In this document: positions 1-56,626 of the stretch, one piece after another
Position numbering within the stretch: position 1 is the stretch's first letter
How the letters are laid out: each line of letters starts with the position of its first letter
Origin: Candidatus Parcubacteria bacterium
GTDB taxonomy: Bacteria; Patescibacteriota; Patescibacteriia; Magasanikbacterales; UBA922
DNA length: 64,000 nucleotides
Direction of reading: 5' to 3'
NCBI GenBank assembly: GCA_002869205.1
Contig: PKTJ01000066.1
Coordinates: forward strand, 187-64,186
Translations under genes and position numbers: made by a program
Notes under the pieces: model-generated
The model's database searches: none
Seen by the model: the letters and a program-made list of their open reading frames with translations, nothing else
What the model was told of the DNA's origin: nothing

Positions 1-1017
1 ATACCCTCTTTCCCCCGTATCTTCTTTGGGTGTATCTTCTTTAGGTTTTGGTTCTTCTTCTTTTTTTGGTTCATCTGTGTCACTAAGAGAATCAGCCATT
101 TGCTTCCATTTTTTGTCGCCCCATAGACTGGCTGGCCCTCGTGGGCCACCTTTTGTGCGCAATGGTTTTTGTGAACCGTCATTATCTTCGGGCTCTGTTG
201 TTTTTTCTTGTGCTTTGTCTCTGGGCGCTGTTTCATTATTTGGTTTATCTTCTGGTTTTCGGTCTTCAGCTCTTTTTGTGTCCGCTACTTTACCCTCTCC
301 TTCTTCGTTTTGATCTTGTTCTGAAGAATTACCATCCTGAGCTTCTGTCTCTGATTCATTTTCTTCGTTATCTCCATATTCATCTTCTGGTGTGTCAACA
401 ATGGATCTGCGATCATCATCAGTGAGAGGCGAATCATCAAGATTGTTGGCGCGATTTGTCCATTTGCTATTATTATCTTGTGTTGGGTCAGCATCTGATT
501 TACGCTCTTCATCGGTAAGAGGATCATCGCTTAGATTGCGATTACGATCTGCCCAATCACCTGTGCCATAATCATCTGAACTTTCTGGCTTCTGTGATTC
601 TTCTGTAGGTTTTATACCTTCTTTCTTTTCTGATTTAGGAGTTTGTTTTGGTTCTGGTTTTTTGTTTTCAGCTTTTTTTGCATCACGTGCATCTTGTTTA
701 TCAGCGCGCTTACTCCATTTATCATCACCTGTATAGTCATCTTCTGGTGAGTCGACAATGGATTTACGGTCATTATTACTCAGAGGTGCATTATCAAGAT
801 TTCTGGCACGTCTGCCCCATTTATTATTATCTTCCGCAGATAGTGGTGTGTCTGTGGAAGAGGATTTTTGTGGTGCATTAGTATTTCTTGATTGCGACGT
901 AGACGATTTCGTTATTTTTCTAGTTTTTTTACTTTTACTATTCTGACTCCTTTTCGCCCTTTGTTGGTCTCTGCGTAATTGCACGGCACGTTGTTTTTGT
1001 TTGCCTTTTTTTGGCAT
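1..1017 (-). CDS. hypothetical low-complexity charged repeat protein, N-terminal 339 codons (C-terminus lies beyond the window start)
   Basis: Manual translation of the minus strand from ATG (rc of 1015-1017) is open to position 1 with no stop. N-terminus MPKKGKQKQRAVQLRR; a ~40-aa motif NNxKWxxRAxNLDxxPLxxxDRxSIVDxPEDxYxGD occurs about three times. The ORF track missed it because it has no in-window stop. The plus-strand ORFs 26..946 are its antisense. Confidence 0.5.
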   Translation of the reverse strand, partial: MPKKGKQKQRAVQLRRDQQRAKRSQNSKSKKTRKITKSSTSQSRNTNAPQKSSSTDTPLSAEDNNKWGRRARNLDNAPLSNNDRKSIVDSPEDDYTGDDKWSKRADKQDARDAKKAENKKPEPKQTPKSEKKEGIKPTEESQKPESSDDYGTGDWADRNRNLSDDPLTDEERKSDADPTQDNNSKWTNRANNLDDSPLTDDDRRSIVDTPEDEYGDNEENESETEAQDGNSSEQDQNEEGEGKVADTKRAEDRKPEDKPNNETAPRDKAQEKTTEPEDNDGSQKPLRTKGGPRGPASLWGDKKWKQMADSLSDTDEPKKEEEPKPKEDTPKEDTGERGY

Positions 1018-1030
1018 ACGGAGGCTTACG

Positions 1031-3565
1031 TTAGTTTAAGCTATATGTATTATCACGGTAACTTAGTTTGTATGCTTCTTTTTTTGTTTTGTCCTGAAGT
1101 GTTTCTACTGCTAATTCGTGTAGTAATTCTTGCACCTTTTTTTCTATATTTCGTGCACCAAGGTCAATATTTGATGTTTCTTTTGTAATTGATTTGAGCG
1201 CAGATGCGTCAGCCGTAATACTAAATTTCTGTGTTTTTTTGAAATGTTTACTTACGCGATCTATGTGTTGTTTGATTATCTTTTCAATATCTTTTTTTCC
1301 TAGTGTGTTGAATACACAAATAGTTCCGAGTCTGCTCAATAGTGCATTACCTAATGTTTCTTTTAATTTATTGTGTATGTTTTTGGTAAAATTAGTATCT
1401 ACATCTCGGTTTTCGTGTGTTTCGTTATCAAATCCAATGCCCTGAGATTTGAATAGTTCATTTCCTACATTAGTTGTGAGAATTATAGTGGTGTGTTTGA
1501 GACTTATCTTGCGTCCATTGCTATCAGAAATTTCTCCTTCATCTAGTATTTGTAATAAGAGTTTAGAAACATCTGGGTGTGCCTTGTCAATTTCATCAAA
1601 GAGAAGCACACAATATGGTCGCTTTTTTAATTTTTCTATAAACGGATTTCTATCCTTGTATCCAATATATCCAGCAGGGGAGCCAAGGATTTTTGACACG
1701 CTATGACTCTCACTAAATTCTCCCATATCGAGTTTTATAAGTGCTTGTTTGTCATGATAAAGTTCTTCTGCAAGACGTTTTGTTAGTTCAGTTTTCCCTA
1801 CACCACTTGGGCCAACAAAAAGAAAAGAGCCAAATGGTTTGTTTTGGTTTTGTATACCAAGTTCAGCACGTTTGAGTGATGCAATAACTTCTTGAATGGT
1901 TTGTTTTTGCCCCACAATATGTTTACTCAATCGCTTTTCGAGTGTCTTGAGATTTTCCCATTCATTTTGTGAAAGAATTGTTTCGTCGATGTGCATTTTT
2001 TTACTCAGCACACTGCGAACATGCTGTTCTGTGACGCGGAGTTTTTTCTTAGTTTTATTTTGCGTTGTTTTGCTCAAGTCAGTTATTTGTGTGTCTAACT
2101 TTTCTATTTTCTTTTTGAGTTCCAGAGCATCTTTGAGTCGTTCTTGTGAAATTGCTTTATCTTTTTCTTCTATGTATTCTTCTTGTTTTTGCTCTAGTGC
2201 AAATAGGCGTGTTGTGTGTTCACTTGTTTTTCTACTTGTCTTTACTGAGCTCGCAGCTTCGTCTATTAAGTCTATAGTTTTGTCTGGTTGAAAATTGTCG
2301 TGAATGTATTTATTACTCAACCTCAACGCTTCTTTGAGCGCGTTTTCAGTAATTGAGACATGATGAAATGATTCGTAGTATTTTTTTATACCTTGCAAGA
2401 TCGTGAGTGTTTCTTTGTCATTTGGTTCTTCTACATCGATCATTTGAAATCGGCGTTCAAGTGCAGGGTCGCTGGTAATATATTTTTTATACTCATCATA
2501 TGTTGTTGCTCCAATACAGCGTAGTTGTCCGCGTGCAAGAGCGGGTTTGAGTATGTTGGCTGCATCCATAGTTCCTTGGTTGGATCCAGCTCCGATAATG
2601 TTGTGAAGTTCGTCAATAAATAAAATATAATTTGGATTGGCACTGCACTCGTCTACAATTTGTTTGAGTCGTGCTTCAAATTCTCCACGATATATGGTTC
2701 CTGCAACGAGCAGTGTAAGGTCAAGTGATAATATTTTTTTGCGTTTCAATACATCTGGCACGTCACCTGACGCAATTTTTTTGGCAAGTCCTTCTACGAT
2801 TGCAGTCTTACCAACACCTGGTTCACCAACAAGAATAGGATTGTTTTTTGTCCTACGTGCCAAGATATTTATAATACGTTCAATTTCCTCATCTCTTCCC
2901 ACAACAGGATCAATTTTTTGTTGACTTTGTTTCGATGTGAGATTGGTAGTAAATTGTGTGGTGGCATTTATTTTTTTATTTCCTTTCATGTGTGGCGGCA
3001 TTGGCATACTAGATGGGGGAGGTGGCATAGATCCTGGTGCAGGCATGTCCCCTAGATTGTCAAAAACTTCACTCACATCTCCCATCTGTGAAAAACGGGT
3101 TGTGTTTTGAAATGAAGTATCTAGCTGATCTTTTATGTGCTCATATTCAATATTGAGAGATACAAATACTTCGGTTATATCTTTGTTTTGTGCGTGTACC
3201 AATCCAAACAGGAGGTGTTCAGTTCCTACGTACGTGTGTTCTTGATCATGTGCAAGGACAAGTCCTTTTTCCAATACTTTTCGTGATGTCGGACTTAGTT
3301 CTGGTAGATTTTCTGGTCCTGTTGTTTTTGATGATTGGTTAAGCGTTTGTATATCTAGTGAAGAAATATTTTTTATAAATTCTGGTGTGATACCAAATTT
3401 TTTCAAAATCTCTCCTGCAACACATCCTTGTTCTTCTGACAAAGCAAGAAATAAATGGATAGGTTCCACTTGTTTGGAATTATAATGTGAAGCGAGGGAA
3501 ATAGCTCGCGCAATGACATTTTTTAGGTGGGTGGAAAAATTATCAATGAGTTTTTGTGCGTCCAT
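1031..3565 (-). CDS. Clp/Hsp100 family AAA+ chaperone (ClpB/ClpC-like), two AAA domains plus Clp_N
   Basis: Clp_N repeats ([22 protein letters not shown]), Walker A GEPGVGKT and GPSGVGKT, and a coiled-coil middle region. Start placed at MDAQKL (Met 26 of the track ORF). There is a Pro/Met-rich linker after the N-domain. Confidence 0.9.
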
Positions 3566-3691
3566 ATTTTGGTTATATATCAAAACAAATAGTTGCTTTA
3601 GAACTACGCTTATTATATAATAAATGTCCCTTTTTATCAATTACTTTGAATTATAAAATTATATATTAGTTTAGCTATTTATTTTGCATTG

Positions 3692-5200: not shown

Positions 5201-5968
5201 TTAATTATTTTGTATCCATCCGGTAATCTTTGTCGCCACATTTCTCGGTGCTAGTCTATTTGCAAACGCAAGAAGTTTGTTTCTAAATCCTGGTATCACT
5301 ACACGTTTGTTTTTTATCAGTCCTCGATATCCAACATAGGCGACTTCGTCGGCATTCATAACCTTCATTGTTTTGGGAAAGCGTAGTTCGGCAGCTTTTT
5401 CAAAACCAGTCCGAGTAGGGCCAGGACACAGTGTAGTGACACTCACGCCGGTATTTTTTAATTCTTCTCCAAGAGCTTCTGAGAAATGAAGTACAAATGC
5501 TTTACTTGCATAATATACTGCCATGCCAGGACCTGGTTGGAATGCTGCGGTTGAGGCGATGTTTAAAACTTTTCCACTTTTTTTAGATATCATGTCTGGT
5601 AAGAAAAGTTTTGTAAGTTCTGTCAGTGCAGAGATATTTATTTTGATCATGTCGAGTTCTTTTGCTAGATTTGTTTCTGTAAATTTTCCATATAATCCAA
5701 ACCCAGCATTATTCACTAGTATGTCTATAGTAATATTGTTTTCTTTTATCTCAGCATACAGTTTTTGAGGTGCGTCATCGTCAGTAAGGTCGTGGGTAAA
5801 TACATGGGTTTGAATATCGTGTGTACTCGAAAGTTCTTTTGCAATTGTATCTAGTTTTTCTTTATTACGTGCCACCAAAACGATATTGTGATTGTTTTGT
5901 GCAAAACGTTTACATAGCTCATATCCTATACCACTTGATGCGCCAGTGATGAGTACTGTTTTTTGCAT
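5201..5968 (-). CDS. short-chain dehydrogenase/reductase (SDR) family oxidoreductase
   Basis: TGASSGIG cofactor motif, NNAG, YxxxK (YYASKAF). Confidence 0.85.
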   Translation of the reverse strand: MQKTVLITGASSGIGYELCKRFAQNNHNIVLVARNKEKLDTIAKELSSTHDIQTHVFTHDLTDDDAPQKLYAEIKENNITIDILVNNAGFGLYGKFTETNLAKELDMIKINISALTELTKLFLPDMISKKSGKVLNIASTAAFQPGPGMAVYYASKAFVLHFSEALGEELKNTGVSVTTLCPGPTRTGFEKAAELRFPKTMKVMNADEVAYVGYRGLIKNKRVVIPGFRNKLLAFANRLAPRNVATKITGWIQNN

Positions 5969-5978
5969 AATATATCTA

Positions 5979-6632
5979 TTAGATTTCTATGTCTTTGAGA
6001 GATTCTGACAAGAAAATAGTATCAAAATTTCCATTAAAAAATTCTTTTGGATGAAGTGCGCGAGTTACCATGAGGAGGTTTTTTTCAATAACATTTTCAG
6101 CTTTCTTGTGATTTGCGAGTCCTGTGTTGAATCCTGCTTGATGGTATGCATCGTTCACAAGTTGTGAACAAAAAAATTGTTGTTGTTTTGATGCAAAAAA
6201 GAAATCAAAAGGTTTGCCAATTTGTTTTCGTGCATAGCGCACAGTTTTCTTTATTATTGTTTTTTTGTGTTTTTTGAGACGTGGTCTGAGAATAGCGAGC
6301 GTATCATATTCTGAAAAGAAATTTCTAAATTTTTCTCTTACAACACCATCTGAAACTGCATGTATGACACGTCCGCCACCGGTATAGATACATGCATGCG
6401 TGACAGGACCGCGTATGAATAAGCCACTTGCCCTTCTGTGGTTTCCGACCAAGAGCATGTCTCCTTTTTGGATTATTTTTAGTGCATTTTTATAATCTTG
6501 TGGAGTAAGATTATTTTTTCGCCACGTAACTTTTGTAACCCCAATCAAAAAAATAATATTTCCAAATATTTTTTTGAATACTGAAGCATTCTCTTCAAAA
6601 TTTTTTATGAGATGATATCTATAGGATTTCAT
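5979..6632 (-). CDS. YiiX/YaeF-like permuted papain-fold (NlpC/P60-related) putative amidase
   Basis: FFCSQLV cysteine motif and HAV/HACIY histidines; family assignment made from memory of motifs only. Confidence 0.45.
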   Translation of the reverse strand: MKSYRYHLIKNFEENASVFKKIFGNIIFLIGVTKVTWRKNNLTPQDYKNALKIIQKGDMLLVGNHRRASGLFIRGPVTHACIYTGGGRVIHAVSDGVVREKFRNFFSEYDTLAILRPRLKKHKKTIIKKTVRYARKQIGKPFDFFFASKQQQFFCSQLVNDAYHQAGFNTGLANHKKAENVIEKNLLMVTRALHPKEFFNGNFDTIFLSESLKDIEI

Positions 6633-6639
6633 TTTTTGT

Positions 6640-7509
6640 TTATACTAGTCCACGAAGTTTTTTAATACGATCTTCTGCTGGTGGATGTGTAGAAAAGAAT
6701 TTTGAAAAGCCCTTTCCTTTGAGAGGGTTTGAAATGAAGAGGTGGGCTGTCGCAGTGCTTGCGGTAGGGAGAGCTGAAGATTTGGAAATTTTTTCAAGCG
6801 CTCGCGCAAGACCTTCTGGATATCTTGTTAGAAGTGCGCCAGATGCATCTGCAAGGTATTCGCGTTTTCGTGAGATAGCGAGTTTGATGAGTTCGGCGAT
6901 AATAGGGGAGAGTATGAGTAAAATCAGTCCGATAATCGCAAAATATCCACTTCCTTTACTATCACTTTTTCCACCACCATACCATCGTGCACGGAAAAAC
7001 CAATTACTAATCAGAGATATTGTTCCGACAAGGACGACTACAATGGTCATGAGTCTAATGTCGAAATTTTTGATATGAGATATTTCATGTGCGATCACTC
7101 CTTCGAGTTCTTCGTTTTCGAGTGCTTTTACAATTCCTGTGGTGACAGCTACTGATGCGTGCTCTGGATCTCTACCTGTGGCAAATGCATTCATGGCAGG
7201 GGAGTCTATAATATATACTTTTGGGGTCGGGATTCCGGCGGTAATAGCCATGTTTTCTACCATGCGATATACATATGGATCAGCTTCCTTCGTTGTTTCT
7301 CTGGCGCCGGTAGAGCGTAGTGCGATTTTGTCTCCCTTGTAGTAGCTTATGAGTGTCATGAGAACAGAAATAACCATAGCACCCACGACCATAGCGTATC
7401 CACCGCCATAATATACATCGAGTGCCCAGCCGATTGCGAGAATGATTATCATAAACACAAAGATGAGAATCTTTGTCTTGCGTTTGTTTGAGTCTATTTG
7501 AGAATACAT
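6640..7509 (-). CDS. htpX: protease HtpX (M48 zinc metalloprotease)
   Basis: HEISH zinc motif, N-terminal TM helices, typical HtpX length; adjacent LemA as in many genomes. Confidence 0.9.
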   Translation of the reverse strand: MYSQIDSNKRKTKILIFVFMIIILAIGWALDVYYGGGYAMVVGAMVISVLMTLISYYKGDKIALRSTGARETTKEADPYVYRMVENMAITAGIPTPKVYIIDSPAMNAFATGRDPEHASVAVTTGIVKALENEELEGVIAHEISHIKNFDIRLMTIVVVLVGTISLISNWFFRARWYGGGKSDSKGSGYFAIIGLILLILSPIIAELIKLAISRKREYLADASGALLTRYPEGLARALEKISKSSALPTASTATAHLFISNPLKGKGFSKFFSTHPPAEDRIKKLRGLV

Positions 7510-7597
7510 ATTATTTAGTATTTAGTTCGTAGCCAATAGCCAATAGAAAATTTACAAAAGGTATTCCTATTGGTTGTAAATTATTGGTTGTGAACTT

Positions 7598-8164
7598 TTA
7601 GAGTTTTACTTCGATATTCTCACGTTCAGTTGCATCTTCAATTTCGAAGAATACAAATTTCTCAAATCGTTTAAACATTCCTGCAATAACATTGTTTGGG
7701 AATGATTCAATTTTGATATTGAAATCACGTACATTGCCGTTGTAAAATCTACGTGCTGCCATGATTTTGTTTTCAGTATCAGAAAGTTCGTCCATGAGCT
7801 GCATAACATTTTGATTTGCTTTCAAATCTGGATATGCTTCCATAGCTACTTTCAAATCACGCATCATTGAGTTGATTTGTGTTTCTGATTTTGCAAGACC
7901 TTCTGTGTCACCAGCTTCTTGTGCTTTCATAGCATCAGCACGAGATTTGGTAATGTTTTCGAGTAGTTCACGCTCGTGTTTCATGTATCCTTTCACACTA
8001 TTGACCAAATTTGGAATGAGGTCGTGACGACGCTTGAGTTGTACATCAATATCACTCCAAGATTCTTTCGTGCGATTTTGGAGTTTGATAAGTACGTTGT
8101 AGACACCAATAATCCAAAAGAGGACAACGGCGAGGATAATAAGGATCGCGAATAATACTGGCAT
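7598..8164 (-). CDS. lemA: LemA family membrane protein
   Basis: N-terminal TM helix followed by the conserved LemA core (KESWSDIDVQLKRRHDLIPNLV...RRFYNG). Confidence 0.85.
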   Translation of the reverse strand: MPVLFAILIILAVVLFWIIGVYNVLIKLQNRTKESWSDIDVQLKRRHDLIPNLVNSVKGYMKHERELLENITKSRADAMKAQEAGDTEGLAKSETQINSMMRDLKVAMEAYPDLKANQNVMQLMDELSDTENKIMAARRFYNGNVRDFNIKIESFPNNVIAGMFKRFEKFVFFEIEDATERENIEVKL

Positions 8165-8271
8165 AATATAAACGGTTACGTGGATAAGTTTCCACTATTG
8201 ATTAAGATACTACATTATGAGATAATGATACTGTTATTTTACGCTAATTTATAGCTTTTCGTCAATATATT

Positions 8272-9477
8272 ATGATTACTGTACTACTTTTTATACTTAT
8301 CTTAGGGGTTTTAGTAATTGCTCATGAATTTGGACATTTTATTACCGCACGTATGAGTGGTATGAAGGTCTATGAATTTGGTTTTGGGTATCCGCCGAGG
8401 GTATTTAGTTTCTATAGAGATCCAGAGACAAAGAAAATTAAAATTATCTGGGGCAAAGGAAAGAGTAATTTGAAGAAGACTGTTTCAGGAGATGAGCAAC
8501 AAGATGAGTTTCCTGGTATGCTTTGGTCAATTAACCTTTTACCAATTGGTGGTTTTGTACGTATTAAGGGAGAGAATGGTGAGGAAGCTCAAGATCCTGA
8601 TAGTTTTGGTGCTCACAAAGCGTGGAAACGTATTGTTGTTTTGGTTGCCGGCGTTACCATGAATGTAATTTTGGCTGGTATTGTGCTTGGTGTTGGATTC
8701 ATGATCGGATTACCTACAGACATGTCCCAAGGTGTTGATAAACATGCTCAGGTTTTAGAAAGTCCGAGTATTATTGTTCAGCAAGTTCAGCCTCATACTC
8801 CAGCAGAGGAGGCAGGTGTAAAATTTGGAGACAAAATTTTGCGTGTTGGTGAAGGAGATACAGAGTGGACAAAAGAAAAAGAGTGGAATGGTGAGTCTGT
8901 AGATTCGATGTCTTTTATATCATTTGTAAATGAGCGTGAAGGAGAAGAGATTTCTCTTGTTATTGCTCGTGGTGAAGAAGAGTTTATTACCACGTTAGTG
9001 CCTGAGGTTTTTGAAGGAGAAGAGGTGGCGAAAATAGGTGTTGCATTGGCTGACGCAGGCATTGTTCGTTATCCGTGGTTTATTGCAATTTACAAAGGTT
9101 TTGTCGCAGCAGTGTTTGGTCTCATGAATATCTTTATCGCTTTTTATTACTTGATTAAGAATCTGATGTTGGGGCAAGGTCTGTTGTTTGATGTCGCAGG
9201 ACCAGTAGGTATTGCAAATATTGTGGGACAGAGCGCTAAGCTCGGAATTAATTATCTTTTGAATGTGACAGCCATGCTTTCTCTTAGTTTGGCGGCTATC
9301 AATATTTTGCCAATTCCTGCTCTTGATGGTGGTCGTATATTGTTTATTTTGATAGAAAAAATAATTCGTCGTCCTGTCCCTATAAAGTATGAACAACTTG
9401 CTCATACTATTGGATTTATGTTGCTTATGTTACTTGTGGTTGTGGTCACATGGCGCGATGTGGTAGGGTTATTTTAA
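8272..9477 (+). CDS. rseP: RIP metalloprotease RseP (site-2 protease, M50) with PDZ domain
   Basis: HEFGH near the N-terminus, PDZ-like middle, LDGG motif near the C-terminus, multiple TM helices. Confidence 0.9.
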   Translation: MITVLLFILILGVLVIAHEFGHFITARMSGMKVYEFGFGYPPRVFSFYRDPETKKIKIIWGKGKSNLKKTVSGDEQQDEFPGMLWSINLLPIGGFVRIKGENGEEAQDPDSFGAHKAWKRIVVLVAGVTMNVILAGIVLGVGFMIGLPTDMSQGVDKHAQVLESPSIIVQQVQPHTPAEEAGVKFGDKILRVGEGDTEWTKEKEWNGESVDSMSFISFVNEREGEEISLVIARGEEEFITTLVPEVFEGEEVAKIGVALADAGIVRYPWFIAIYKGFVAAVFGLMNIFIAFYYLIKNLMLGQGLLFDVAGPVGIANIVGQSAKLGINYLLNVTAMLSLSLAAINILPIPALDGGRILFILIEKIIRRPVPIKYEQLAHTIGFMLLMLLVVVVTWRDVVGLF

Positions 9478-19400: not shown

Positions 19401-19904
19401 GCAGCCAAGAAAAAAATAACAAAAAAAGGTTCTGTCATGATGTTTGCGACAATTCAAGATATGACAGGTCGTATTGAAATGTTGGTTTTTCCAAAAGCAT
19501 ATGAAGTAAGTAAAGAAGTTTGGGAAGCGGGTAATGTTGTGTGTGTGGTAGGAAAAACTCCGCGCGAAGATGGAGACAATAAGATATTTGTAGAAAAGGC
19601 ATATGTATTAACGAAAGAAAATATTGAACAAATTAGTGGGTATCTATCTTTTAATACAAGTGGTGTAGAAAAAAAGAAGAAAGAAGAAAATAGTAAGTAT
19701 ATTACAATAGGTTTGACTCAAGATGAGGTCAAGGAATATACCAATGATCTAAAAGTATTGTTAGAAGAATATCCGGGTAATTACGATGTATATGTTCGTG
19801 TTGGTATGAACACAATTCGTGCTCAATCACAAGTTGACTGGAACGAAGAGTTGAAGGATAGACTTGAGTCACTGATAGGTCCAGGTAAGGTAGAAGTGCG
19901 GTAA
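16428..19904 (+). CDS. dnaE: DNA polymerase III alpha subunit
   Basis: PHP domain start (HLHVHSHYSLLNG), polymerase core motifs, OB-fold C-terminus; 1158 aa. Confidence 0.95.
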   Translation: MDFVHLHVHSHYSLLNGLSKVKALVKAAKKRGFKALALTDYGSMYGAIEFYQACLAEDIKPIIGFEAYVAPRSRHDKDPEKDKGVYHIMLLAENFEGYQNLMRLSSIGHLEGFFNDKPRVDKELLKEFGKGVIALSGPIEGEVPQLLKDNKDDEAKKVVAEFEEIFGKGNFYLELQDHPAIEGQMQVNTKLIQLSKDVNTPLVVTRDVHYLDFNEAEAQDVLRCISNGWKVGQSDREDYRHVDRSFNTAQDIISRFKHVPEAIENTVKIADRVDLDIPLNNWHFAPVDLPEGKNADEHLRDEAYRCVSDFYGDTTQELKDRIEYELDIIKTKGYSPYFICVADYVRYAKRNGIVESTRGSAAGSLVSYILGITTVDPMRFKLPFERFLNPYRPSPPDIDTDFADDRREEMIEYMTRKYGEDKVAQIITFGTMAARASVRDVGRALALSYGFCDQVAKLIPQGAQGFPMTIERALKEEPDLKKLYEMNEDVKRLLDLAQQVEGCARHTSIHAAGVVVSPTPLTDFSPVQRETGGDKLTTQYEMHSVETAGVLKNDFLGIRNLAILGNAVVIVEKTTGDKIDIYNLPLDDTKTFEMLARGETMGVFQLAGAGMTRWVKELKPNRIEDIMAMVALYRPGPMESIPEYIHRKYNPETVSYLDPRLEKILDASYGLLVYQDDVMLTAIELAGYDWMEADKFRKAMGKKVPEEMAKQKIKFYDGCKNHGKVPKNIIDELWTAIEPFAAYGFNKAHAASYGIVAYQTAYMKAHYPVQYMTSVLQAESGDADKISAIVGECRRINIEVLPPDVNESFKSFAMVSKPGEKGRIRFGLTAIKNVGDHICDVIYRERKANGQYKDLEDFLDRIDDKDLNKKSVESLAQAGALDCFGYDRGVLMANSENILGYIKQIKEKRTTNQDSLFAGTDIALDSKVRIDDTEPATLEQKLVWEKTLLGIYVSSHPFAYYEKFLGNKVVPVAEVEEKDRDSWVVVGGVIDAAKKKITKKGSVMMFATIQDMTGRIEMLVFPKAYEVSKEVWEAGNVVCVVGKTPREDGDNKIFVEKAYVLTKENIEQISGYLSFNTSGVEKKKKEENSKYITIGLTQDEVKEYTNDLKVLLEEYPGNYDVYVRVGMNTIRAQSQVDWNEELKDRLESLIGPGKVEVR

Positions 19905-19922
19905 TAAAAATATATAAAAAAT

Positions 19923-19958
19923 TCCCTCTGGCAAAAACCAGAGGGATTTATTTTTCTT
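19923..19958 (+). terminator. rho-independent terminator after dnaE
   Basis: TCCCTCTGG-caaaaa-CCAGAGGGA followed by a T-run. Confidence 0.7.
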
Positions 19959-20034
19959 TGGAGGCGCCGTCAAGAAACGACGCCTGTCGGGGAGGGGAAC
20001 GCCCCGCCGCCCGAAGGCGGCGGGAGTAGAGCGT

Positions 20035-21078
20035 TCAGCGAGTTGTGCGGATCGAGGTGTCCCAGTGGTGGTGGTAGATGATGTGACCGAGGTCTGTGAG
20101 CCACGAGACGACACGGATCTTGCCCGACTTGACGAAGGGGTTCAAGAACTGTCGATTCACGAGCGGGACCGTGTCTGCGACGTAGAGGCGATCGAGCGGC
20201 GAGTGATCGAGCTGCAGGTTCTCCACCGCGTCACCACACAGAATGGCGTGCGTAACGATTGCCCAGAATTCGTGGATCTCGGCACGTTCTCGGACGGTGT
20301 TAGCTGTCCTCAGATTCGTGCTGACTGTCGCCGCTTCATCGTCCACAGACAGAACCAGTGCACCTTCGAGTTCATCGACATCTCGATAGATGTCTTTGAT
20401 CTCGACGTCGCGGCTGTTTCCACGACGTTTGTCACCAAACGTCGTGAAGATGTCACAGTCGAGCTCGTCGGCCACGTTCGTGACAGCTTCCTCATAGCGC
20501 TTCTTGGCGCCGTTGTCTGGGTAGTGTACGACGATCTTGTCGTGAGTTTGCAGCGCTTCTTCGAGCGCCTGCTTGAATACGCGCTTGAACATACTCACTT
20601 CGGTGATGAGACCAGGGTCACCGGCCATCACAACCTGCGAAGCGTGGAGATCGACGGAGATGATTCTGTCGAGTCTGCCTTGCGCGGCCGTCTTCATCAG
20701 CGAGACGATGAGGGGTGGAAGAGCGAACTCGTCGTCAGCTTCGTCTCTGTCGGATCGCGAGAGCGGGAAGTAGGCGGTGATGACGGTGATTCGGGCGGCT
20801 CTTCTGCCTGCCACGTGGTTGAGCAAGAAGAATAGGTTCACGAGCATGTCGGGGGTGCCAGGGCCACTGGTCAAGATCACGCAGTCGTGACCGCCGATGT
20901 GCTTCTTCTTCAGCTTGATGAAGGGTTCTTTGCTGCTGCGCCGACCGAAGATCGGAGACGCGATGTCGACAGGCGTCTCTTTCCTTTCGATCTGCTCTTT
21001 GAGAAGGGTGGCGATGTCTTCGAATCCGGGCATGGGAACGAGCGTGAGCGCGCCGTGCTGGCTGTGTCTGTCTTTCAT
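20035..21078 (-). CDS. divergent ribose-phosphate pyrophosphokinase (PRPP synthetase) family protein, second copy
   Basis: Aligns along its whole length to Prs (HDCVILTSG..RITVITAYFPLSRSDRD..DLHASQ..KRRGNSRDVE..SVDDEAATVST). Signature loops are altered: GYARQDRK becomes PLSRSDRD and DTGGT becomes EAATVST. GAGGG ribosome-binding site 8 nt before the ATG. Confidence 0.7.
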   Translation of the reverse strand: MKDRHSQHGALTLVPMPGFEDIATLLKEQIERKETPVDIASPIFGRRSSKEPFIKLKKKHIGGHDCVILTSGPGTPDMLVNLFFLLNHVAGRRAARITVITAYFPLSRSDRDEADDEFALPPLIVSLMKTAAQGRLDRIISVDLHASQVVMAGDPGLITEVSMFKRVFKQALEEALQTHDKIVVHYPDNGAKKRYEEAVTNVADELDCDIFTTFGDKRRGNSRDVEIKDIYRDVDELEGALVLSVDDEAATVSTNLRTANTVRERAEIHEFWAIVTHAILCGDAVENLQLDHSPLDRLYVADTVPLVNRQFLNPFVKSGKIRVVSWLTDLGHIIYHHHWDTSIRTTR

Positions 21079-21158
21079 AACGAAACCCTCGTAATTAGAT
21101 CAAGAAAACGACCTCCCCGGCCGTCTCCTCGATGTGTGAAATGAGCAAACATGTCACC

Positions 21159-21188
21159 ATAATAATTGTTTTGAGTTGTCATGTCAAC
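21159..21188 (-). promoter_or_regulatory. sigma70-like promoter for the prs-like gene (TTGACA-17-TATTAT)
   Basis: Minus-strand -35 at 21183-21188 and -10 at 21159-21164, between the udk terminator and the prs-like ribosome-binding site. Confidence 0.55.
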
Positions 21189-21202
21189 CATAAAAAAAAC
21201 GA

Positions 21203-21233
21203 ACACCCCGAGGCCGAAGCCACCGGGGTTTTA
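21203..21233 (-). terminator. rho-independent terminator downstream of udk
   Basis: Minus strand AAAACCCCGGTGGC-ttcg-GCCTCGGGGTGTT followed by T8. Confidence 0.65.
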
Positions 21234-21239
21234 GTTCGC

Positions 21240-21863
21240 TCAGGATGGGTGGAATCCGTTGAGCATCTGTTCGAGTCCTGCCTGAATGAACAGGCGTGCG
21301 ATCTCGTTGTTCCCGCCGTGTGGCACGATCAGGTTCGCGTGTCTGCGGGTCGGGTGACAGAATTCGTCGTGCATGGGTGCGACAGTGCCTTCCCATTGCT
21401 CGAGGATACCTTCGAGTTTGCGTCCTCGTTCCAGAACGTCTCGTTTGATACGACGCGCGAGACGTGTGTCTCCGGGCGTGTCGACGTAGATCTTGATCTT
21501 GGCGAGGCTTACCAATTCAGGTACAGCGAGCGCGAGTATTCCTTCGGCGATGATGAACGTTTTTGGGTCCACCTGGACACGCTCAGGTTCACGCGAATGC
21601 GTGTTGTAGTCCCAGCGCGGGGTCTGGACCGATACACCATCGACGAGCTCGCGAACGTGTGACACCATTAGGATGTTGTCGAAAGACCCTGGGTGGTCGA
21701 AGTTGCCGTTCTGGACGTAGGGAGACTCGGGGTCGTAATAGAAGTCGTGGCAGATTCGACAGCACTTGTCATCGCCGAGCATTCGGATGATTTCACGCGC
21801 GAGCGTTGTCTTACCAGAACCAGTGCCACCAGCGACGATGATCACGACAGGCGTGTTTTCCAT
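21240..21863 (-). CDS. udk: uridine/cytidine kinase
   Basis: P-loop GGTGSGKTT, NFDHPGSFD, FIIAEGIL, YVDTPGDTRLARRIKRDVLERGR, ANLIVPHGGNN; near colinear with E. coli Udk. Start placed at MENTPVV, which has GGAGG 9 nt upstream. Confidence 0.85.
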   Translation of the reverse strand: MENTPVVIIVAGGTGSGKTTLAREIIRMLGDDKCCRICHDFYYDPESPYVQNGNFDHPGSFDNILMVSHVRELVDGVSVQTPRWDYNTHSREPERVQVDPKTFIIAEGILALAVPELVSLAKIKIYVDTPGDTRLARRIKRDVLERGRKLEGILEQWEGTVAPMHDEFCHPTRRHANLIVPHGGNNEIARLFIQAGLEQMLNGFHPS

Positions 21864-21959
21864 CTTGAGCTTCCTCCAATTTGCAACAAAGCAGGCCATC
21901 GGCCTGCTCCTTTGTTGTATTTCAGAAATATTGTAACGCTACTTTTGTAGTTTGTCAAA

Positions 21960-22225: not shown

Positions 22226-22317
22226 GAGTTTATAAAGTTTAAAAGTTTAAAAAGTATACAAACTAACTATATGTAAAATACTTTACAAACTTTATAACTT
22301 TAGTAACTTTCGAACTC
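22226..22317. repeat. AAAGTT-motif inverted-repeat element (MITE-like), overlaps the 3' end of prs
   Basis: Left arm GAGTTTATAAAGTTTAAAAGTTTAAAAAG and right arm CTTTACAAACTTTATAACTTTAGTAACTTTCGAACTC are imperfect inverted copies; related elements at 53854-53931 and 54097-54183. Confidence 0.5.
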
Positions 22318-23250
22318 ATTAATAGATTTTACACTTTCATTTTTATGGATTTTTGAAATAATTTCAGCAAATCGTTTGCTCACTGACACTATTTCCAAAT
22401 CTCGTAGGTTGTGATGGTCACTTGGAATTGTGTCAGTAGTAATGAATTTGGTGATAGGGGAGTTGTTTAGTTTTTCACTTGCGCCTACACCCAAATTCGC
22501 GTGTATGAAACATGCATCTACACTCACTGCTCCTGCAGAATTGAGGAGAAATTCAGCATCTTCAATCAATGTTCCACCACTAAGTGTTTCGTCATCAATG
22601 ATAAGACATTTTTTATTTTGTACATCACCAATAACACCTTTGATTTTTACTTTTTCATCATTACCAATTCTACGTTTATCCATCATAGCAACAGGTAAGT
22701 CGAGACTGTCGGCATACGATTCCATCATTTTTGCTGCGCCGCTGTCTCCAGCTACGAGAACATAATTAGATAAATCCCAATTCTGTTTTAGGTGTTTGAT
22801 AATATCTGGTGCCGCAATGAGATGATCACACGGTACGCCGAAGAAGCCATGGAGTTGTGCCGAGTGCATCTCCATGATGAGGACACGGTTTGCACCAGCT
22901 GTCTGTAGCATGTCGGCTATGAGTTTGGCAGTAATACAAATTCGTGGTTGATCTTTTTTGTCTGATCGTGCATATGAAAAGTAGGGGAGAACTGCGGTAA
23001 TTCTTTTTGCAGAAGCATCTCTGAGTGTTCTGATATACATGAGAAGTTCCATGATATGGATGTGTACCGGTGTTGTGTGAGTTTGTATAACAAACACATC
23101 ATCTCCTCGCACAGCCTCATCAACAGTCACAAATTTATCTCCATTACTAAATGTTATAGAAGATGTTTGTGTCTCTTCTATATCCAAGTGTTCACAGATT
23201 TTCTTTACAAATCCTTTGTGGCTGCTACCACCAATAATTTTGAGGGACAT
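22300..23250 (-). CDS. prs: ribose-phosphate pyrophosphokinase (host copy)
   Basis: Canonical motifs DDVFVIQTHT, RITAVLPYFSYARSDKK, MEMHSAQ, IIDDETLSGGTL; AT-rich codon usage. Confidence 0.9.
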   Translation of the reverse strand: MSLKIIGGSSHKGFVKKICEHLDIEETQTSSITFSNGDKFVTVDEAVRGDDVFVIQTHTTPVHIHIMELLMYIRTLRDASAKRITAVLPYFSYARSDKKDQPRICITAKLIADMLQTAGANRVLIMEMHSAQLHGFFGVPCDHLIAAPDIIKHLKQNWDLSNYVLVAGDSGAAKMMESYADSLDLPVAMMDKRRIGNDEKVKIKGVIGDVQNKKCLIIDDETLSGGTLIEDAEFLLNSAGAVSVDACFIHANLGVGASEKLNNSPITKFITTDTIPSDHHNLRDLEIVSVSKRFAEIISKIHKNESVKSINEFESY

Positions 23251-26230: not shown

Positions 26231-26274
26231 TTCCAACTTTCCAACTTTACAACTTTCCAACTTTCCAACTTTTT
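26231..26274. repeat. 8-bp tandem repeat (CCAACTTT)x5, i.e. AAAGTTGG on the coding strand; the third unit reads AAAGTTGT and creates TAA
   Basis: Read directly from the sequence. Confidence 0.9.
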
Positions 26275-27485
26275 TCTTTTTCAATATATGTTTTTGTTGC
26301 GTCAACTGCTCTCCCACTAAATACCATACACTCTAGCAAAGAGTTTGATGCGAGACGGTTTGCGCCGTGTACTCCTGTGTGTGCGACTTCGCCAAATGCG
26401 AAGAGTCCAGGAATGTTCGTCCGTCCATCGAGGTCTGTATGAATACCGCCGCATATAAAATGTGCAGCAGGGGATATAGGAATCAAATCTTTGTCCATTT
26501 TGATATCATGCCACCAGAGATTTTCATAGAGGTATGGGAAACGTTTTTTTATATAAGCACTTCCTTTGTGTCTAATATCTAAATATACGGTACCATGCTT
26601 CATTTCTTCCAAAATTGCTCGAGCAACTATATCGCGGGGCGCCAAATCTTTCAATTCATGATAGTTTTTCATGAATTGTTCGCCTTTGCTATTTACAAGA
26701 ACACCGCCTTCACCGCGAACTGTTTCTGATATAAGTAACGACGGCGCACCTTTTTTATTAAGAGCAGTTGGGTGAAACTGAATAAATTCCATATCTTTAA
26801 TTTCAGCACGTGCTTTGTATGCCATCGCGACACCATCACCTGTGGCGATTTTTGGATTTGAATTTCTTTCATATACTTGTCCTGCACCGCCGGTTGCAAG
26901 AATTGTTGCCTTTGCAGAGAAATTGAGAATCTTGTTATTATCAGTGTCCAGGACGAATGCACCTATGCATTGTCTTGGTGTTGAGACGCGATCAATCGCG
27001 TCTTTACTTTCGGCTAATTTAAATGCGACATGCGATTCAAATATGGTTATGCGCTTATGGTGGCGCACTTGGTGAATGAGGGCTCGCTCTATTTCTTTGC
27101 CAGTTGTATCGTGTGCATGAGCGATCCTGCGCTCAGAATGTCCACCTTCTTTGGATAGACATAGCTCGTCTTGTTTTTTGCTAAAGCCAACACCGACGTC
27201 GATGAGTCGCTTGATTTGATTTGGTGCTTCTTTGATCATTATCTCTACTGCTTCTTTATCATTCAGATGGCACCCAGCTTTCATAGTATCTTCGATATGT
27301 TTATCAAAACTATCCATCTTATCTAGTACCGCAGCAATACCACCTTGTGCATAGTTGCTGTTGCTTTCCATAAGCTCTTTTTTGGTCACAATAGCGACAG
27401 TTCCATACTCACTTGCTTGCAAGGCAAAATTCAGGCCTGCAATGCCGCTGCCTATTACTAAGAAGTCAAAACTGTTTTTAAACAT
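26247..27485 (-). CDS. nadB: L-aspartate oxidase, FAD-binding and capping domains (412 aa, truncated by a stop inside the repeat)
   Basis: FAD motifs (VIGSGIAGL, RHHK, HYxxGG), in the nadA/nadC neighbourhood. Confidence 0.85.
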   Translation of the reverse strand: MFKNSFDFLVIGSGIAGLNFALQASEYGTVAIVTKKELMESNSNYAQGGIAAVLDKMDSFDKHIEDTMKAGCHLNDKEAVEIMIKEAPNQIKRLIDVGVGFSKKQDELCLSKEGGHSERRIAHAHDTTGKEIERALIHQVRHHKRITIFESHVAFKLAESKDAIDRVSTPRQCIGAFVLDTDNNKILNFSAKATILATGGAGQVYERNSNPKIATGDGVAMAYKARAEIKDMEFIQFHPTALNKKGAPSLLISETVRGEGGVLVNSKGEQFMKNYHELKDLAPRDIVARAILEEMKHGTVYLDIRHKGSAYIKKRFPYLYENLWWHDIKMDKDLIPISPAAHFICGGIHTDLDGRTNIPGLFAFGEVAHTGVHGANRLASNSLLECMVFSGRAVDATKTYIEKEKSWKVGKL

Positions 27486-27495
27486 ATAATATGCT

Positions 27496-27549
27496 GATTT
27501 CCAGATAACCCAGATTTACGGATATCTGAATTATCTGGAAATCCGAATC
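27496..27549. repeat. palindromic intergenic repeat family P (core GGATTTCCAGATAATCCAGATTTACGGATATC), copy 1
   Basis: 13-bp perfect arms GATTTCCAGATAA/TTATCTGGAAATC; 5 copies in the window. Confidence 0.65.
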
Positions 27550-27558
27550 TTAAAATGA

Positions 27559-28422
27559 TTAAAGAATGTCTAAGCTTATATCCAAAGACTTAACCGAGTG
27601 GGTGAGACTTCCAAGAGAAATTACGTTTACACCACTCTTTGCATAAGAAATAATATTTTTTTCTGTAATACCACCGGATGCTTCAAAAATAATATTTGTT
27701 TTTCCAATTTGTTTTATTATTTTTTTAATATCTTGTGGTTTGAAATTGTCGAACATTATTGCGTCTGGTTTTTGTTTTACAAAGTCTAATATTTGTTTTT
27801 TTGTTTTGCATTCTACTTCTGTGAAGTAACTAGTTACTGGTAACTTGTTACTAGTTACTAATTTGAGATGGTTATCTTTTATCAAAATCCAATCATATAG
27901 ACCAAGTCGGTGGGTGCCTCCGCCGCCGAGTGTCACTGCTTTTTTGTCTACCAATCCCCATTGTGTCTTGCGTGTTGGTACCACAAGTACATGTTTTCCA
28001 ACTTTTTTTACAAGTTTATCAGTTTGCGTTGCAATACCAGACATGCGTTGCATCAAGTTTAGAATCGTGCGTTCAATCTTTAAAATATCTTTTATGCCTC
28101 CTGTTAGTTTTAAAATCTTATCTCCTTTTTTTACTCTCGCTCCGTCTCGCTTGTATCTTGTAATTTGTATCTTGTATCTTTTTAAGAACCATTTTGTTTC
28201 TTCAAGACCAGCGAGTGTGCCAGATTCTTTTGCTTTTAGTATAGCAGTAACTTTTGGATTTCCTTTTATTGTTGCGTCGCTTGTGACGTCACCTTGGCTA
28301 TCCAAATCCTCAATCAAAAAATCCTCAGTTAATCTTTTTACCTGCCTCAAGTACTTACGATTTTTCAAGGTAAGTTTTTCTCTTTGGTTATAATATTTTT
28401 TGATTTTTTGTTGCTTGGTCAT
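27559..28422 (-). CDS. nadC: nicotinate-nucleotide pyrophosphorylase (quinolinate phosphoribosyltransferase)
   Basis: NadC core (LLNLMQRMSGIAT, TRKT, GGGGTHRLGLYD, LIKDNH). Confidence 0.85.
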   Translation of the reverse strand: MTKQQKIKKYYNQREKLTLKNRKYLRQVKRLTEDFLIEDLDSQGDVTSDATIKGNPKVTAILKAKESGTLAGLEETKWFLKRYKIQITRYKRDGARVKKGDKILKLTGGIKDILKIERTILNLMQRMSGIATQTDKLVKKVGKHVLVVPTRKTQWGLVDKKAVTLGGGGTHRLGLYDWILIKDNHLKLVTSNKLPVTSYFTEVECKTKKQILDFVKQKPDAIMFDNFKPQDIKKIIKQIGKTNIIFEASGGITEKNIISYAKSGVNVISLGSLTHSVKSLDISLDIL

Positions 28423-28482
28423 ATTGACTATAAAAATTTATTGTGATATGTTTTATAAGTTACACAACGGAAGGAGAGCCCT

Positions 28483-28701
28483 ATGACGTCAAAGGATGTG
28501 GTTGTCACCATCACGATCGGAGATGCAGAAGGTGATCAAGGTATCAAGGTGTCCGGAGATGTTCACCTGACTCACAACGTCGCGAACAGGGCGCTGAATC
28601 TGTTCGCCAGCACGATGCTTCATGCGCTCGGAGAGAGTAGCATGCTCGCGCGTAACTTCTGGAGTGCGATCTCGAATCTCGCATCAACGGTCCGTAAGTA
28701 G
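28483..28701 (+). CDS. GC-rich island B: hypothetical 72-aa protein inserted inside the NAD operon
   Basis: GC-rich codons in an AT-rich operon. GGAAGGAG ribosome-binding site 6 nt upstream; TTGACT-17-TATGTT promoter 2 bp from the nadC start. A tiny ORF (MPMEVQYI, 28737-28763) with its own GGAGGA site follows. Confidence 0.55.
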   Translation: MTSKDVVVTITIGDAEGDQGIKVSGDVHLTHNVANRALNLFASTMLHALGESSMLARNFWSAISNLASTVRK

Positions 28702-28830
28702 GACTAGTGAGGTTCGGTGACCATGGAGGAAAGGACATGCCCATGGAAGTACAGTATATATGAATTTCGTTTATACTGTTCTATCATGGGTAAATAATTT
28801 TGAAAAGGACTGTAGAGATACGGTTCTTTT

Positions 28831-30180
28831 TTATTTACTTAATTCCATCATTTTATCTAAACTTATTTTTGCTTTTTGTAATACTTCTTTACCAAGATTA
28901 ATAATTTGATCTTTACGTGGATTCTTAAGTGCAGTGAGAATATCTTCTAACTTTATTTTTTTCATATACGGACAGAGCTGGCAGCTACCAACAATGTGTT
29001 TATTCGGGAATTCTGTTTGTACCCTGTCGGTAATACCGCATTCAGTAATTAGCATGTAGTGCTCAGAAGGGTTGTCTTTTACATAGTTCAACATATCACT
29101 CGTGCTACCAACTAGATCAACCGAGTCAATGACAGAGGGGGTGCATTCATAATGTGCTAATATTTTTGTATGAGGAAATTGAGCTCTAATTTTTTTTACT
29201 GCGCGTTTATCAAATTGTTCATGCACTATGCATACACCATCCCATAAAATTAACTTTTTTTTCGTCAATTTTTGTAAGTTATGCCCCATAAGCATGTCGG
29301 GAATAAAAATAATTTCATCGTTTGGAAGACTTTCGATAATTTTGAGTGCATTTGAACTGGTGACACATATATCACTTTGAGCTTTTACTTCCGCACTCGT
29401 GTTTACATATGTCAAAATAGGAACTCCTGGATGTTTTTCTTTTAGATTTTGTACATCTTTGGCAGTGATTGAGTCAGCGAGTGAACATCCTGCAACTGCA
29501 GGAATAAGGACTTCTTTTTCTGGACTCAAGATTTTTGCAGTCTCACCCATGAAGTGTACTGAGCAAAAAATAATTTTCTTTGCGCTGTGTTCTGCCGCAA
29601 TTTTACTAAGCCCATATGAATCTCCAAGGAAGTCTGCTACACCATACATAATGTCTGTTGTTTGGTAAGAGTGGGCGAGTATGATGGCATCTTGTTCACG
29701 CTTTAATTTATTTATTTCAAGTGTTGTTGGTGCAATGCTTAGACAGTAGCCAAATGTCCTTTTTGTTTTTTTTAATTTTTCAAATAGACGTGCAGCTTCT
29801 TCACGTATCTCGGTTGCGCTGATGTTAATATTTTTTTTAATCATTTTTACGTTGTAATTTTTTTCTTCAAATAATTTTTTTACTACATCATTTCCTGTAT
29901 ATACTGTGTCAAATTCTCCAACAGTATTTTTGACATGATTAACCCATTCATTTTCGTTATGAATATCAGGAATGGCGATGATTTGATAATTTAAATTTAA
30001 TCCATCTAGATTAGATTCTATGTTTTTTTTACGCTCCTCAAAACTTTGTGGATTGTCATCGGTTTCACTATATTGTGAGCTACCAACACCAATAATAATC
30101 TCACTTTCTGAGATTTGTTTAATGGCATCTAAATGCCCATCATGAAATGGCTGGAATCGTCCGATGAATAGTGCTTTCAT
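28831..30180 (-). CDS. nadA: fusion protein: N-terminal NadM-type NMN adenylyltransferase plus C-terminal quinolinate synthase
   Basis: N-terminus GRFQPFHDGH..ISATEIR (cytidylyltransferase, NadM-like). C-terminus ILAHSYQ, VADFLGDS, CSVHFMGETAKIL, TYVNTS, VTSSNA and Cys ligands of NadA. Confidence 0.8.
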   Translation of the reverse strand: MKALFIGRFQPFHDGHLDAIKQISESEIIIGVGSSQYSETDDNPQSFEERKKNIESNLDGLNLNYQIIAIPDIHNENEWVNHVKNTVGEFDTVYTGNDVVKKLFEEKNYNVKMIKKNINISATEIREEAARLFEKLKKTKRTFGYCLSIAPTTLEINKLKREQDAIILAHSYQTTDIMYGVADFLGDSYGLSKIAAEHSAKKIIFCSVHFMGETAKILSPEKEVLIPAVAGCSLADSITAKDVQNLKEKHPGVPILTYVNTSAEVKAQSDICVTSSNALKIIESLPNDEIIFIPDMLMGHNLQKLTKKKLILWDGVCIVHEQFDKRAVKKIRAQFPHTKILAHYECTPSVIDSVDLVGSTSDMLNYVKDNPSEHYMLITECGITDRVQTEFPNKHIVGSCQLCPYMKKIKLEDILTALKNPRKDQIINLGKEVLQKAKISLDKMMELSK

Positions 30181-30184
30181 GGCA

Positions 30185-30227
30185 GAGTTAGAAAGTTTAT
30201 AAAGTGAAAAAGTTTTAAAGTTTACAG
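30185..30227. repeat. AAAGTT-motif repeat (GAGTTAGAAAGTTTATAAAGTGAAAAAGTTTTAAAGTTTACAG) in the nadE-nadA gap
   Basis: Shares GAGTTAGAAAGTTTA-AAAGT with the in-frame repeat at 42577-42616. Confidence 0.5.
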
Positions 30228-56575: not shown

Positions 56576-56626
56576 TTTCGAGCTCCTCATTGTGTCCGTG
56601 GGCTTTTTCGAGCCCTGTTGCGATTC

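Follow-up and report, generated by a model that had tools for sequence, protein, structure and literature searches.

An acidic, largely disordered protein with a predicted C-terminal membrane anchor, encoded beside clpC, represents a previously unannotated family in Magasanikbacteria

We analyzed a 64,000-nucleotide (nt) stretch of contig PKTJ01000066.1 (positions 187 to 64,186 of the forward strand; GenBank assembly GCA_002869205.1) from a Candidatus Parcubacteria bacterium of the Magasanikbacterales, referred to here as the window. At its left edge, on the minus strand and directly downstream of a putative clpC, lies a real gene, here called X, that is cut off by the end of the window. Its complete product of 782 amino acids (aa) combines a basic N terminus, ~620 aa of acidic disordered sequence with short recurring motifs, and a C-terminal membrane anchor. 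That anchor, a 477-nt tandem duplication within the gene, and the conserved, unannotated family to which profile comparisons assign X all go beyond what a first-pass annotation, made from the letters of the window alone, had described. We tentatively favor a reading of X as a disordered scaffold anchored in the cytoplasmic membrane, whose motifs may be docking sites and whose partner may be ClpC, with X as its tether, adaptor, or substrate.

RESULTS

A complete gene beyond the contig edge

The first-pass annotation had proposed an edge-truncated open frame on the minus strand from position 1017 to position 1, and retranslation bears this out, with 339 sense codons and zero stops. The frame begins MPKKGKQKQRAVQLRRDQQRAKR at an ATG (position 1017) that is the earliest start codon downstream of an in-frame stop, and the plus-strand open reading frames (ORFs) at 26-313, 141-425, 648-881, and 758-946, which had been taken for its antisense, are shadows of it. 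The distance to the upstream gene needs amending: it had been given as 14 bp, whereas direct reading places 13 nt (cgtaagcctccgt) between the clpC stop codon (TAA, 1033-1031) and the start codon of X. The charged and disordered character assigned to the fragment holds as well. Aspartate, lysine, and glutamate make up 13.3%, 13.0%, and 10.3% of its 339 residues and hydrophobic or aromatic residues just 9%, and the AlphaFold2 model (mean pLDDT, 52) is unstructured save for one N-terminal helix at residues 7 to 26 (pLDDT ~79 for residues 11 to 20).

Extending the contig had been suggested as a way to recover the missing C terminus, and an independent assembly made this possible. An exact look-up of the ClpC sequence identified NODE_356 of ENA assembly ERZ794998 (47.9 kb; hereafter locus L001), which differs from the window at 2 positions in 13,565 nt and extends beyond window position 1. 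There the frame continues for another 443 codons to a stop, giving the full length of 782 aa (L001:12549-14897). In public data, the clpC product is identical to PLX26127.1 (locus tag C0581_04945) and the gene 3′ of X encodes PLX29100.1 (C0581_00010); both come from one "Candidatus Parcubacteria bacterium" metagenome-assembled genome, but their locus tags suggest that they sit on different contigs, and the public assembly thus seems to be broken inside X. The exact 782-aa sequence is absent from a collection of 15 billion proteins, probably because of this break.

The break and the resulting truncation of X in the window can be attributed to the tandem duplication, whose two 477-nt copies occupy gene nt 631-1107 and 1108-1584 according to self-BLAST and alignment of the copies; window position 1, equivalent to gene nt 1017, lies within copy 1. 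The initial 241 nt of the copies are identical, while the final 236 nt differ at 48 positions (~80% identity) with a bias to third codon positions. The duplication is not an assembly artifact, because the copies diverge at these 48 positions and because orthologues at two other loci (L009 and L042) keep the same two-copy layout.

A conserved family downstream of clpC

Scanning one genome per species with ClpC yielded ~25 loci, nearly all labeled Magasanikbacteria, in which ClpC is 50 to 84% identical. Every locus long enough shows the same order: PGM on the opposite strand, clpC, an X-like gene, a gene for a 418-aa protein, and a gene for a DsbA-like thioredoxin. The first-pass annotation had recommended checking for conserved synteny with clp, and this synteny is present in ~21 Magasanikbacteria loci, where a family member follows clpC, in some cases after a small intervening gene, and precedes the membrane-anchored, propeller-like gene and the dsbA-like gene. 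The X-like proteins are 332 to 714 aa long, with disordered regions that are all acidic (pI 4.05 to 4.81), a range that includes the region between the N terminus and the anchor of L001 X (pI 4.36, net charge -85). Common to all of them is a C-terminal module made up of a coiled coil, 40 to 55 hydrophobic residues with a central turn, and a basic coiled coil. Against profiles of this module, X scores 58.2 bits when L001 is left out of the build and 76.0 bits when L009 is left out as well, compared with 9 to 11 bits for the top unrelated ORF in a set of 1330. Because of these leave-one-out scores, we assign X by sequence profile to a real, previously unannotated family.

In the nearest relative, L009 (ClpC 84% identical), X is 714 aa long and shares the islands PRGPAS-WGDK-W-QxADSLG, KEDTGERGYEKD, and DFGGM with L001 X. 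It lacks the initial ~215 residues of L001 X, comprising the basic block and copies 1 to 4 of the tryptophan motif described below; these are replaced by another N-terminal segment and by a small protein encoded separately. A search of metagenomes with the L001/L009 alignment recovered only L042, which probably represents the same species as L009 or a closely related one and has a matching gene layout. An exhaustive HMMER search with X residues 55 to 216 against 1.84 billion representative proteins gave a single match (E = 1.4e-5), P0004, which contains at least six W-E/A-N/D-R-A-x-x-L-G-D-E-P-A-T-D-x-E-R units followed by an X-type C-terminal module. Its contig (locus L041) is 1.6 kb long, the frame is open to the upstream contig edge, and the gene 3′ of P0004 encodes a homologue of the 418-aa propeller protein, 39% identical to that of the window organism.

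The propeller protein of L001 (14928-16184, 418 aa), which is 53 to 86% identical across loci and always encoded 3′ of X, consists of an N-terminal transmembrane helix, a proline-rich linker, and a propeller-like domain whose similarity to Pfam Tricorn_2nd and PD40 (or TolB) is no more than faint. Both it and the DsbA-like thioredoxin (L001:16189-16614), whose gene likewise always lies 3′ of X, are well conserved across the phylum.

Twelve loci (Table 1) encode between clpC and X a small helical protein of ~109 to 120 aa, whose gene often overlaps X by 8 to 14 nt and is absent from the window organism. It had no match in Pfam or NCBIfam, and a profile of it matched neither L001 X nor anything else in the window. 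The N-terminal helix of X resembles by eye the N termini encoded by first post-clpC genes of related loci (L001 QRAVQLRRDQQRAKR versus L019 QIAAQLYSSKNRARR), for which we used the pattern Q-x-A-x-Q-hydrophobic ... R-A-K/R-K/R; that the N terminus of L001 X is a remnant of the ~115-aa small protein is a speculative idea.

Architecture and membrane anchor

X opens with the basic N terminus that had been described earlier (aa 1 to 58; pI 12, net charge +16), which contains neither a signal peptide nor a hydrophobic segment. Residues 59 to 640 form the acidic region, whose charges add up to about -100 net. The sole hydrophobic stretch of the protein follows only after ~680 highly charged residues; it comprises 45 residues (680 to 724) between a lysine-rich coiled coil (641 to 679) and a basic coiled coil (725 to 782; net charge +12, pI of this post-membrane tail 10.25), with basic residues on both flanks.

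AlphaFold2 gives P0004 a helix at residues 191 to 289, a turn at 290 to 297, and a helix at 298 to 370, mostly with pLDDT above 90. The model predicts a single long helical hairpin, in which a coiled coil and membrane helix 1 pass through a tight turn into membrane helix 2 and a second coiled coil. Given this model, the basic residues flanking the hydrophobic stretch at either end, and the lack of a signal peptide, we infer that X would likewise form a two-helix membrane hairpin, with both protein ends predicted to be cytoplasmic and the flanking coiled coils probably paired as an antiparallel stalk.

Recurring motifs under purifying selection

The repeat motif noticed in the first-pass annotation is real and is also present in the distant homologue P0004. 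About three copies had been counted in the fragment, in agreement with the full copies at aa 64-95, 152-183, and 183-214 (12 to 20 of 32 residues identical), and the complete protein contains six copies of W-x3-A-x2-L-x-D, with tryptophans at residues 67, 101, 155, 186, 304, and 463. All 8 tryptophans of the disordered region lie inside the form [K/D/G]-W-x-x-[R/M/A]-[A/N]-x-x-L-x-D or five residues ahead of it. The hydrophobic residues at positions 0, +4, and +7 match one face of a short amphipathic helix, and for a homologue AlphaFold2 renders the motifs as short helices with low confidence. Copy 3 contributes the top-scoring portion of the match to P0004 (query residues 98 to 150). Copy 5 is a related, extended form (PRGPASLWGDKKWKQMADSLSD) that is kept in the L009 orthologue and occurs a second time at aa 450-475 of full X. 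A second motif, DDSP(H/Y)G-x-(E/N)-(D/Q)-DFGGM-x-MG, or DDSPxGxEDxDFGGMxMGP in simplified form, is present in three copies. Two patterns set post hoc from the X sequence itself, W..R[AN].NL and NL[DS][DN].PL[ST]..[DE]R[KR]S, match three times each, a count equaled in 0 of 5000 residue shuffles.

In the diverged part of the duplicated copies, codon positions 1, 2, and 3 differ in 12, 7, and 29 cases, respectively, and dN/dS between the copies is 0.18 (Nei-Gojobori, whole unit). The segments GGPRGPASLWG, KEDTGERGY, and DDSPHG-EDQDFGGMRMGPP are preserved between the copies despite several synonymous changes, and tryptophan motif copies 1 and 4 have 20 of 32 residues in common even though their DNA is just 78% identical. 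Because of the low dN/dS, the synonymous changes within kept motifs, and the divergence of copies 1 and 4 at the DNA level, codon comparison indicates that the motifs are under purifying selection, as maintained elements and not slippage products.

ANDN motifs in relatives

Eight members of the X family, drawn from three sub-groups (Table 1), carry [AP]-A-N-D-N motifs in their disordered regions, 1 to 3 each and 16 altogether (0.3 expected from shuffling), usually with Ile, Leu, or Phe two residues on. All 16 occurrences in the 93,221 residues of locus ORFs of at least 150 aa lie in the X family. The string matches the way in which proteobacterial ssrA degradation tags begin (AANDENYALAA in Escherichia coli, AANDNFAEEFAVAA in Caulobacter); the SspB adaptor reads A-A-N-D-x-x-Y. 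L001 X is without the ANDN motif, and two of its tryptophan motifs are preceded by AEDNN and TQDNN, i.e., (A/T)(E/Q)DNN, a combination that may be a local version of the ANDN signal. No tmRNA gene was found in the window or in any locus sequence examined, and no SmpB signature was found in the window.

clpC and its putative transcription unit

We classify the upstream gene by architecture as encoding a putative ClpC-type unfoldase. Its product matches Pfam Clp_N repeats, AAA, AAA_lid_9, AAA_2, and ClpB_D2-small, in keeping with the ClpC layout of two Clp_N repeats, two AAA+ modules, and a short middle domain, and its D2 module carries a GIGF ClpP-docking loop of the form [LIV]-G-[FL]; the NCBIfam equivalog models for ClpB, ClpA, and ClpV scored below their cutoffs, and there was no ClpC equivalog match in that release. 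The ORF list begins clpC at a TTG (position 3640; 869 aa) that lies in the first hexamer of the promoter-like site listed in Table 1; public annotation and the exact-match look-up start it at the ATG at 3565 (844 aa).

Cotranscription of X with clpC, an earlier suggestion, is supported by the 13-nt spacer, the promoter-like site 5′ of clpC, the lack of a terminator-like site, and the small gaps in ~21 relatives. In L001, no same-strand terminator-like site was found from clpC through the next three genes, to the DsbA-like gene, and the successive gaps are 13 nt (clpC to X), 30 nt (X to propeller gene), and 4 nt (propeller to DsbA-like gene). Across the ~21 related loci, the clpC stop lies -14 to +13 nt from the next gene, with one exception at 56 nt, and X lies -20 to +56 nt from the propeller gene, with one exception at 91 nt.

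Comparison with known families

Searches of Pfam, NCBIfam, PADLOC, PHROGs, and PDB sequences returned only sub-threshold matches for X, of transmembrane or coiled-coil type. The best of them were DUF4446 (PF14584; C-terminal piece, 20.1 bits; full X, 16.6; gathering threshold, 27.4) and SepX/GlpR (NCBIfam NF050099; C-terminal 185 aa, 18.8 bits; full X, 13.3; cutoff, 150). The anti-phage defense models of PADLOC-DB gave zero families at E ≤ 0.1. Word-indexed protein searches with the 339-aa fragment, the 782-aa protein, and a 17-sequence alignment of the C-terminal module were empty, a result of little weight since they missed the source proteins too. A metagenome scan with the P0004 repeat unit gave pattern matches and no confirmed relative, and scans of viral contigs gave no relative of X.

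HubP/FimV of Vibrio and Pseudomonas and ZipA are membrane-anchored proteins with long acidic or otherwise charged, disordered cytoplasmic repeats that serve as multivalent recruitment platforms. HubP/FimV combines a transmembrane helix with a LysM domain at the N terminus, and ZipA starts with a transmembrane helix and ends in a folded domain that binds FtsZ, whereas X has none of these domains and its anchor is a predicted C-terminal hairpin. Chlamydial Inc proteins have a bilobed hydrophobic segment of ~40 to 60 residues that is read as a two-helix hairpin, often with coiled-coil flanks facing one compartment, and in its predicted hydrophobic hairpin and flanking coiled coils X is like them; Inc proteins are, however, type III-secreted into the host vacuole membrane, while X has neither a secretion context nor Inc sequence similarity. 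The ClpC adaptors of Firmicutes, MecA/YpbH and McsA/McsB, are soluble, folded proteins with a flexible linker that are encoded near ClpC or work with it. What X could have in common with them is the idea of an accessory protein directing ClpC activity, but unlike MecA, McsA, and McsB, it is membrane anchored, almost wholly disordered, and without their domains.

The closest layout analogue is GlpR (Cgl0885) of Corynebacterium glutamicum, an integral membrane protein that acts as receptor of the gephyrin-like divisome protein Glp and has acidic (pI 4.05) and basic (pI 10.87) disordered cytoplasmic regions that bind a cytosolic partner (PMC10522489). X likewise has an acidic disordered region (pI ~4.4) and a basic tail (pI 10.25), but GlpR has 3 transmembrane helices in ~340 aa, whereas X has one hairpin between coiled coils in 782 aa and a different gene context, and the two sequences gave no sign of homology. 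We regard X as a variant, specific to its lineage, of the disordered hub proteins that are tethered to membranes.

Table 1 Features of X and clpC in the window, and loci with related features
Feature	Position	Strand	Basis or comment
X, opening 339 codons	1..1017	minus	Open frame; all 1017 nt identical to L001, where it runs on to a stop
Basic N-terminal block, aa 1-58	844..1017	minus	Segment charges
Predicted N-terminal helix, aa 7-26, QKQRAVQLRRDQQRAKRSQN	940..999	minus	AlphaFold2
Trp motif copy 1, aa 64-95, NNKWGRRARNLDNAPLSNNDRKSIVDSPEDDY	733..828	minus	
Degenerate Trp motif copy, aa 98-112, DDKWSKRADKQDARD	682..726	minus	
Trp motif copy 3, aa 152-183, TGDWADRNRNLSDDPLTDEERKSDADPTQDNN	469..564	minus	
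Trp motif copy 4, aa 183-214, NSKWTNRANNLDDSPLTDDDRRSIVDTPEDEY	376..471	minus	
Trp motif copy 5, extended form, aa 291-316, GPRGPASLWGDKKWKQMADSLSDTDE	70..147	minus	
Most of duplication copy 1	1..387	minus	Self-BLAST and copy alignment; window edge lies inside
Spacer between clpC stop and X start	1018..1030	minus	13 nt, direct sequence reading
clpC, 844 aa from ATG 3565	1031..3565	minus	Directly 5′ of X
Promoter-like TTGATA-17-TATAAT	3612..3640	minus	11/12 consensus positions, consensus match only; L001 9926-9954
ANDN-bearing X orthologues			L008, L010, L014, L017, L019, L021, L022, L026 (disordered regions)
Loci with small protein between clpC and X (n = 12)			L006, L008, L009, L010, L013, L014, L017, L020, L021, L024, L025, L026

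Other features of the window

A run of quality control and envelope genes 5′ of clpC (window 5201-9477) encodes an M50 site-2 protease with a PDZ domain, LemA, an M48 (HtpX-like) protease, a C92/NlpC-P60-like amidase, and a short-chain dehydrogenase, mostly in the same order across the phylum. On the minus strand at 26247-31012 lies a de novo NAD cluster, an unusual capacity for a candidate-phyla bacterium, with genes for an L-aspartate-oxidase-like FAD protein, quinolinate phosphoribosyltransferase, a NadA-cytidylyltransferase-like fusion, and NAD synthase. An MreB gene (39512-40513, plus strand) sits beside a gene for a DUF4012 protein (37990-39489, plus strand), a pair that suggests a rod-shape determinant in a small genome. 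Three GC-rich islands (52 to 59% versus a background of ~38%) lie at ~19900-21900, ~55800-56900, and ~61200-64000. The first adjoins a native low-GC phosphoribosyl pyrophosphate (PRPP) synthetase gene (22300-23250) and encodes a uridine kinase as well as a divergent PRPP-synthetase-like protein, and the other two contain ORFs without Pfam matches; the islands may reflect horizontal transfer or chimeric assembly.

DISCUSSION

Under the reading that we tentatively favor, the motifs of X would act as multivalent docking sites that gather cytosolic partners, one or several, on the cytoplasmic side of the membrane. The likeliest partner would be the co-expressed ClpC, for which X could be a membrane tether or adaptor or a regulated substrate. 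The direct link to ClpC, drawn from gene order alone, is weak, and several observations weigh against it. The related loci were found by a ClpC search, which biases adjacency to clpC through sampling, and since synteny across the phylum extends to the whole neighborhood (pheS, M50, LemA, M48, PGM, clpC, X, propeller, dsbA), the adjacency may be mere conserved gene order. P0004, the one homologue recovered without a ClpC search, still has the propeller gene on its 3′ side, and its 5′ side is cut by the contig end. A profile of the N-terminal helix from the other loci did not lift L001 above background. X has no match to the MecA domain, which binds the N and M domains of ClpC (Pfam at E ≤ 1, NCBIfam at E ≤ 0.1), and, in Pfam and NCBIfam, no similarity to the Clp adaptors MecA, McsA/B, ClpS, and SspB. 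A more specific proposal, prompted by the ANDN motifs and in our view a long shot, is that X is a new type of regulator of AAA+ proteases. As a multivalent decoy or adaptor hub for ClpC, tethered to the membrane, it would there titrate, localize, or pass on either tagged substrates or the unfoldase.

It is rather unlikely, though it deserves to be taken seriously, that X works not with ClpC but with the propeller-like and DsbA-like proteins as an envelope or cell cycle landmark. Its hairpin would then pair with the transmembrane helix of the propeller protein while the disordered region recruits cytosolic division or morphogenesis factors, as in GlpR, ZipA, and HubP. The propeller gene lies 3′ of X in every locus examined, including the P0004 contig found without ClpC, it lies 4 nt from the DsbA-like gene, and the layout of GlpR is comparable (PMC10522489), but the SepX/GlpR match of 18.8 bits is far under the cutoff of 150 and probably reflects composition, the cluster contains no division gene, and X and the propeller protein have no detectable domain in common. 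An improbable alternative makes X mainly a substrate of regulated proteolysis, whose cytoplasmic part is freed, e.g., by the nearby M50 site-2 protease, or whose unstructured basic N terminus is engaged directly, so that ClpCP degrades it and its level becomes the signal. A mycobacterial ClpC1 substrate is named in PMC10433963. In the window, the unstructured, basic N terminus of X adjoins clpC, the unfoldase has its ClpP-docking loop, and the conserved neighborhood includes the M50 protease with PDZ domain, LemA, and the M48 protease. Recognition through a disordered N terminus has reportedly been seen for a mycobacterial ClpC1 substrate. Purifying selection on several internal motifs, however, points to binding roles beyond degradation, X has no output domain such as an anti-sigma domain, and the M50 gene lies on the other strand at a distance of ~7 kb.

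Cell surfaces commonly bear acidic, repeat-rich proteins, and attachment to hosts is how many candidate-phyla bacteria live. X could be an acidic surface or adhesion protein whose N-terminal repeat region is exported on a C-terminal anchor, and the genes downstream do encode extracytoplasmic proteins; we consider this very improbable, given that X has no signal peptide or hydrophobic N-terminal segment, that so long a charged region (~680 residues) precedes its only hydrophobic stretch, and that basic residues on both sides of this stretch and the hairpin model put both ends on the same side. Scarcely credible is the idea that the frame is a nonfunctional or misassembled low-complexity ORF. 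The low-complexity composition, the empty word-indexed protein searches, and the break in the public assembly might invite it, but two independent assemblies differ at just 2 positions over the 13.5 kb that they have in common, other genomes contain orthologues in which the motifs and anchor recur, and the leave-one-out profile scores of 58 to 76 bits and the dN/dS of 0.18 complete what is effectively a refutation.

Candidate-phyla bacteria have tiny genomes in which many conserved genes are without known function. Here one such family is defined and its full architecture recovered, and codon comparison reveals purifying selection on short motifs within an acidic region that looks featureless. 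Repeat-containing genes like X break assemblies and are thereby lost from annotation and protein databases. Should the link to ClpC be true, these organisms would have in X their first candidate for a ClpC accessory factor, one tethered to the membrane; should the link be to the propeller protein instead, X would be a candidate landmark of the envelope or of division in bacteria about whose cell biology very little is known.

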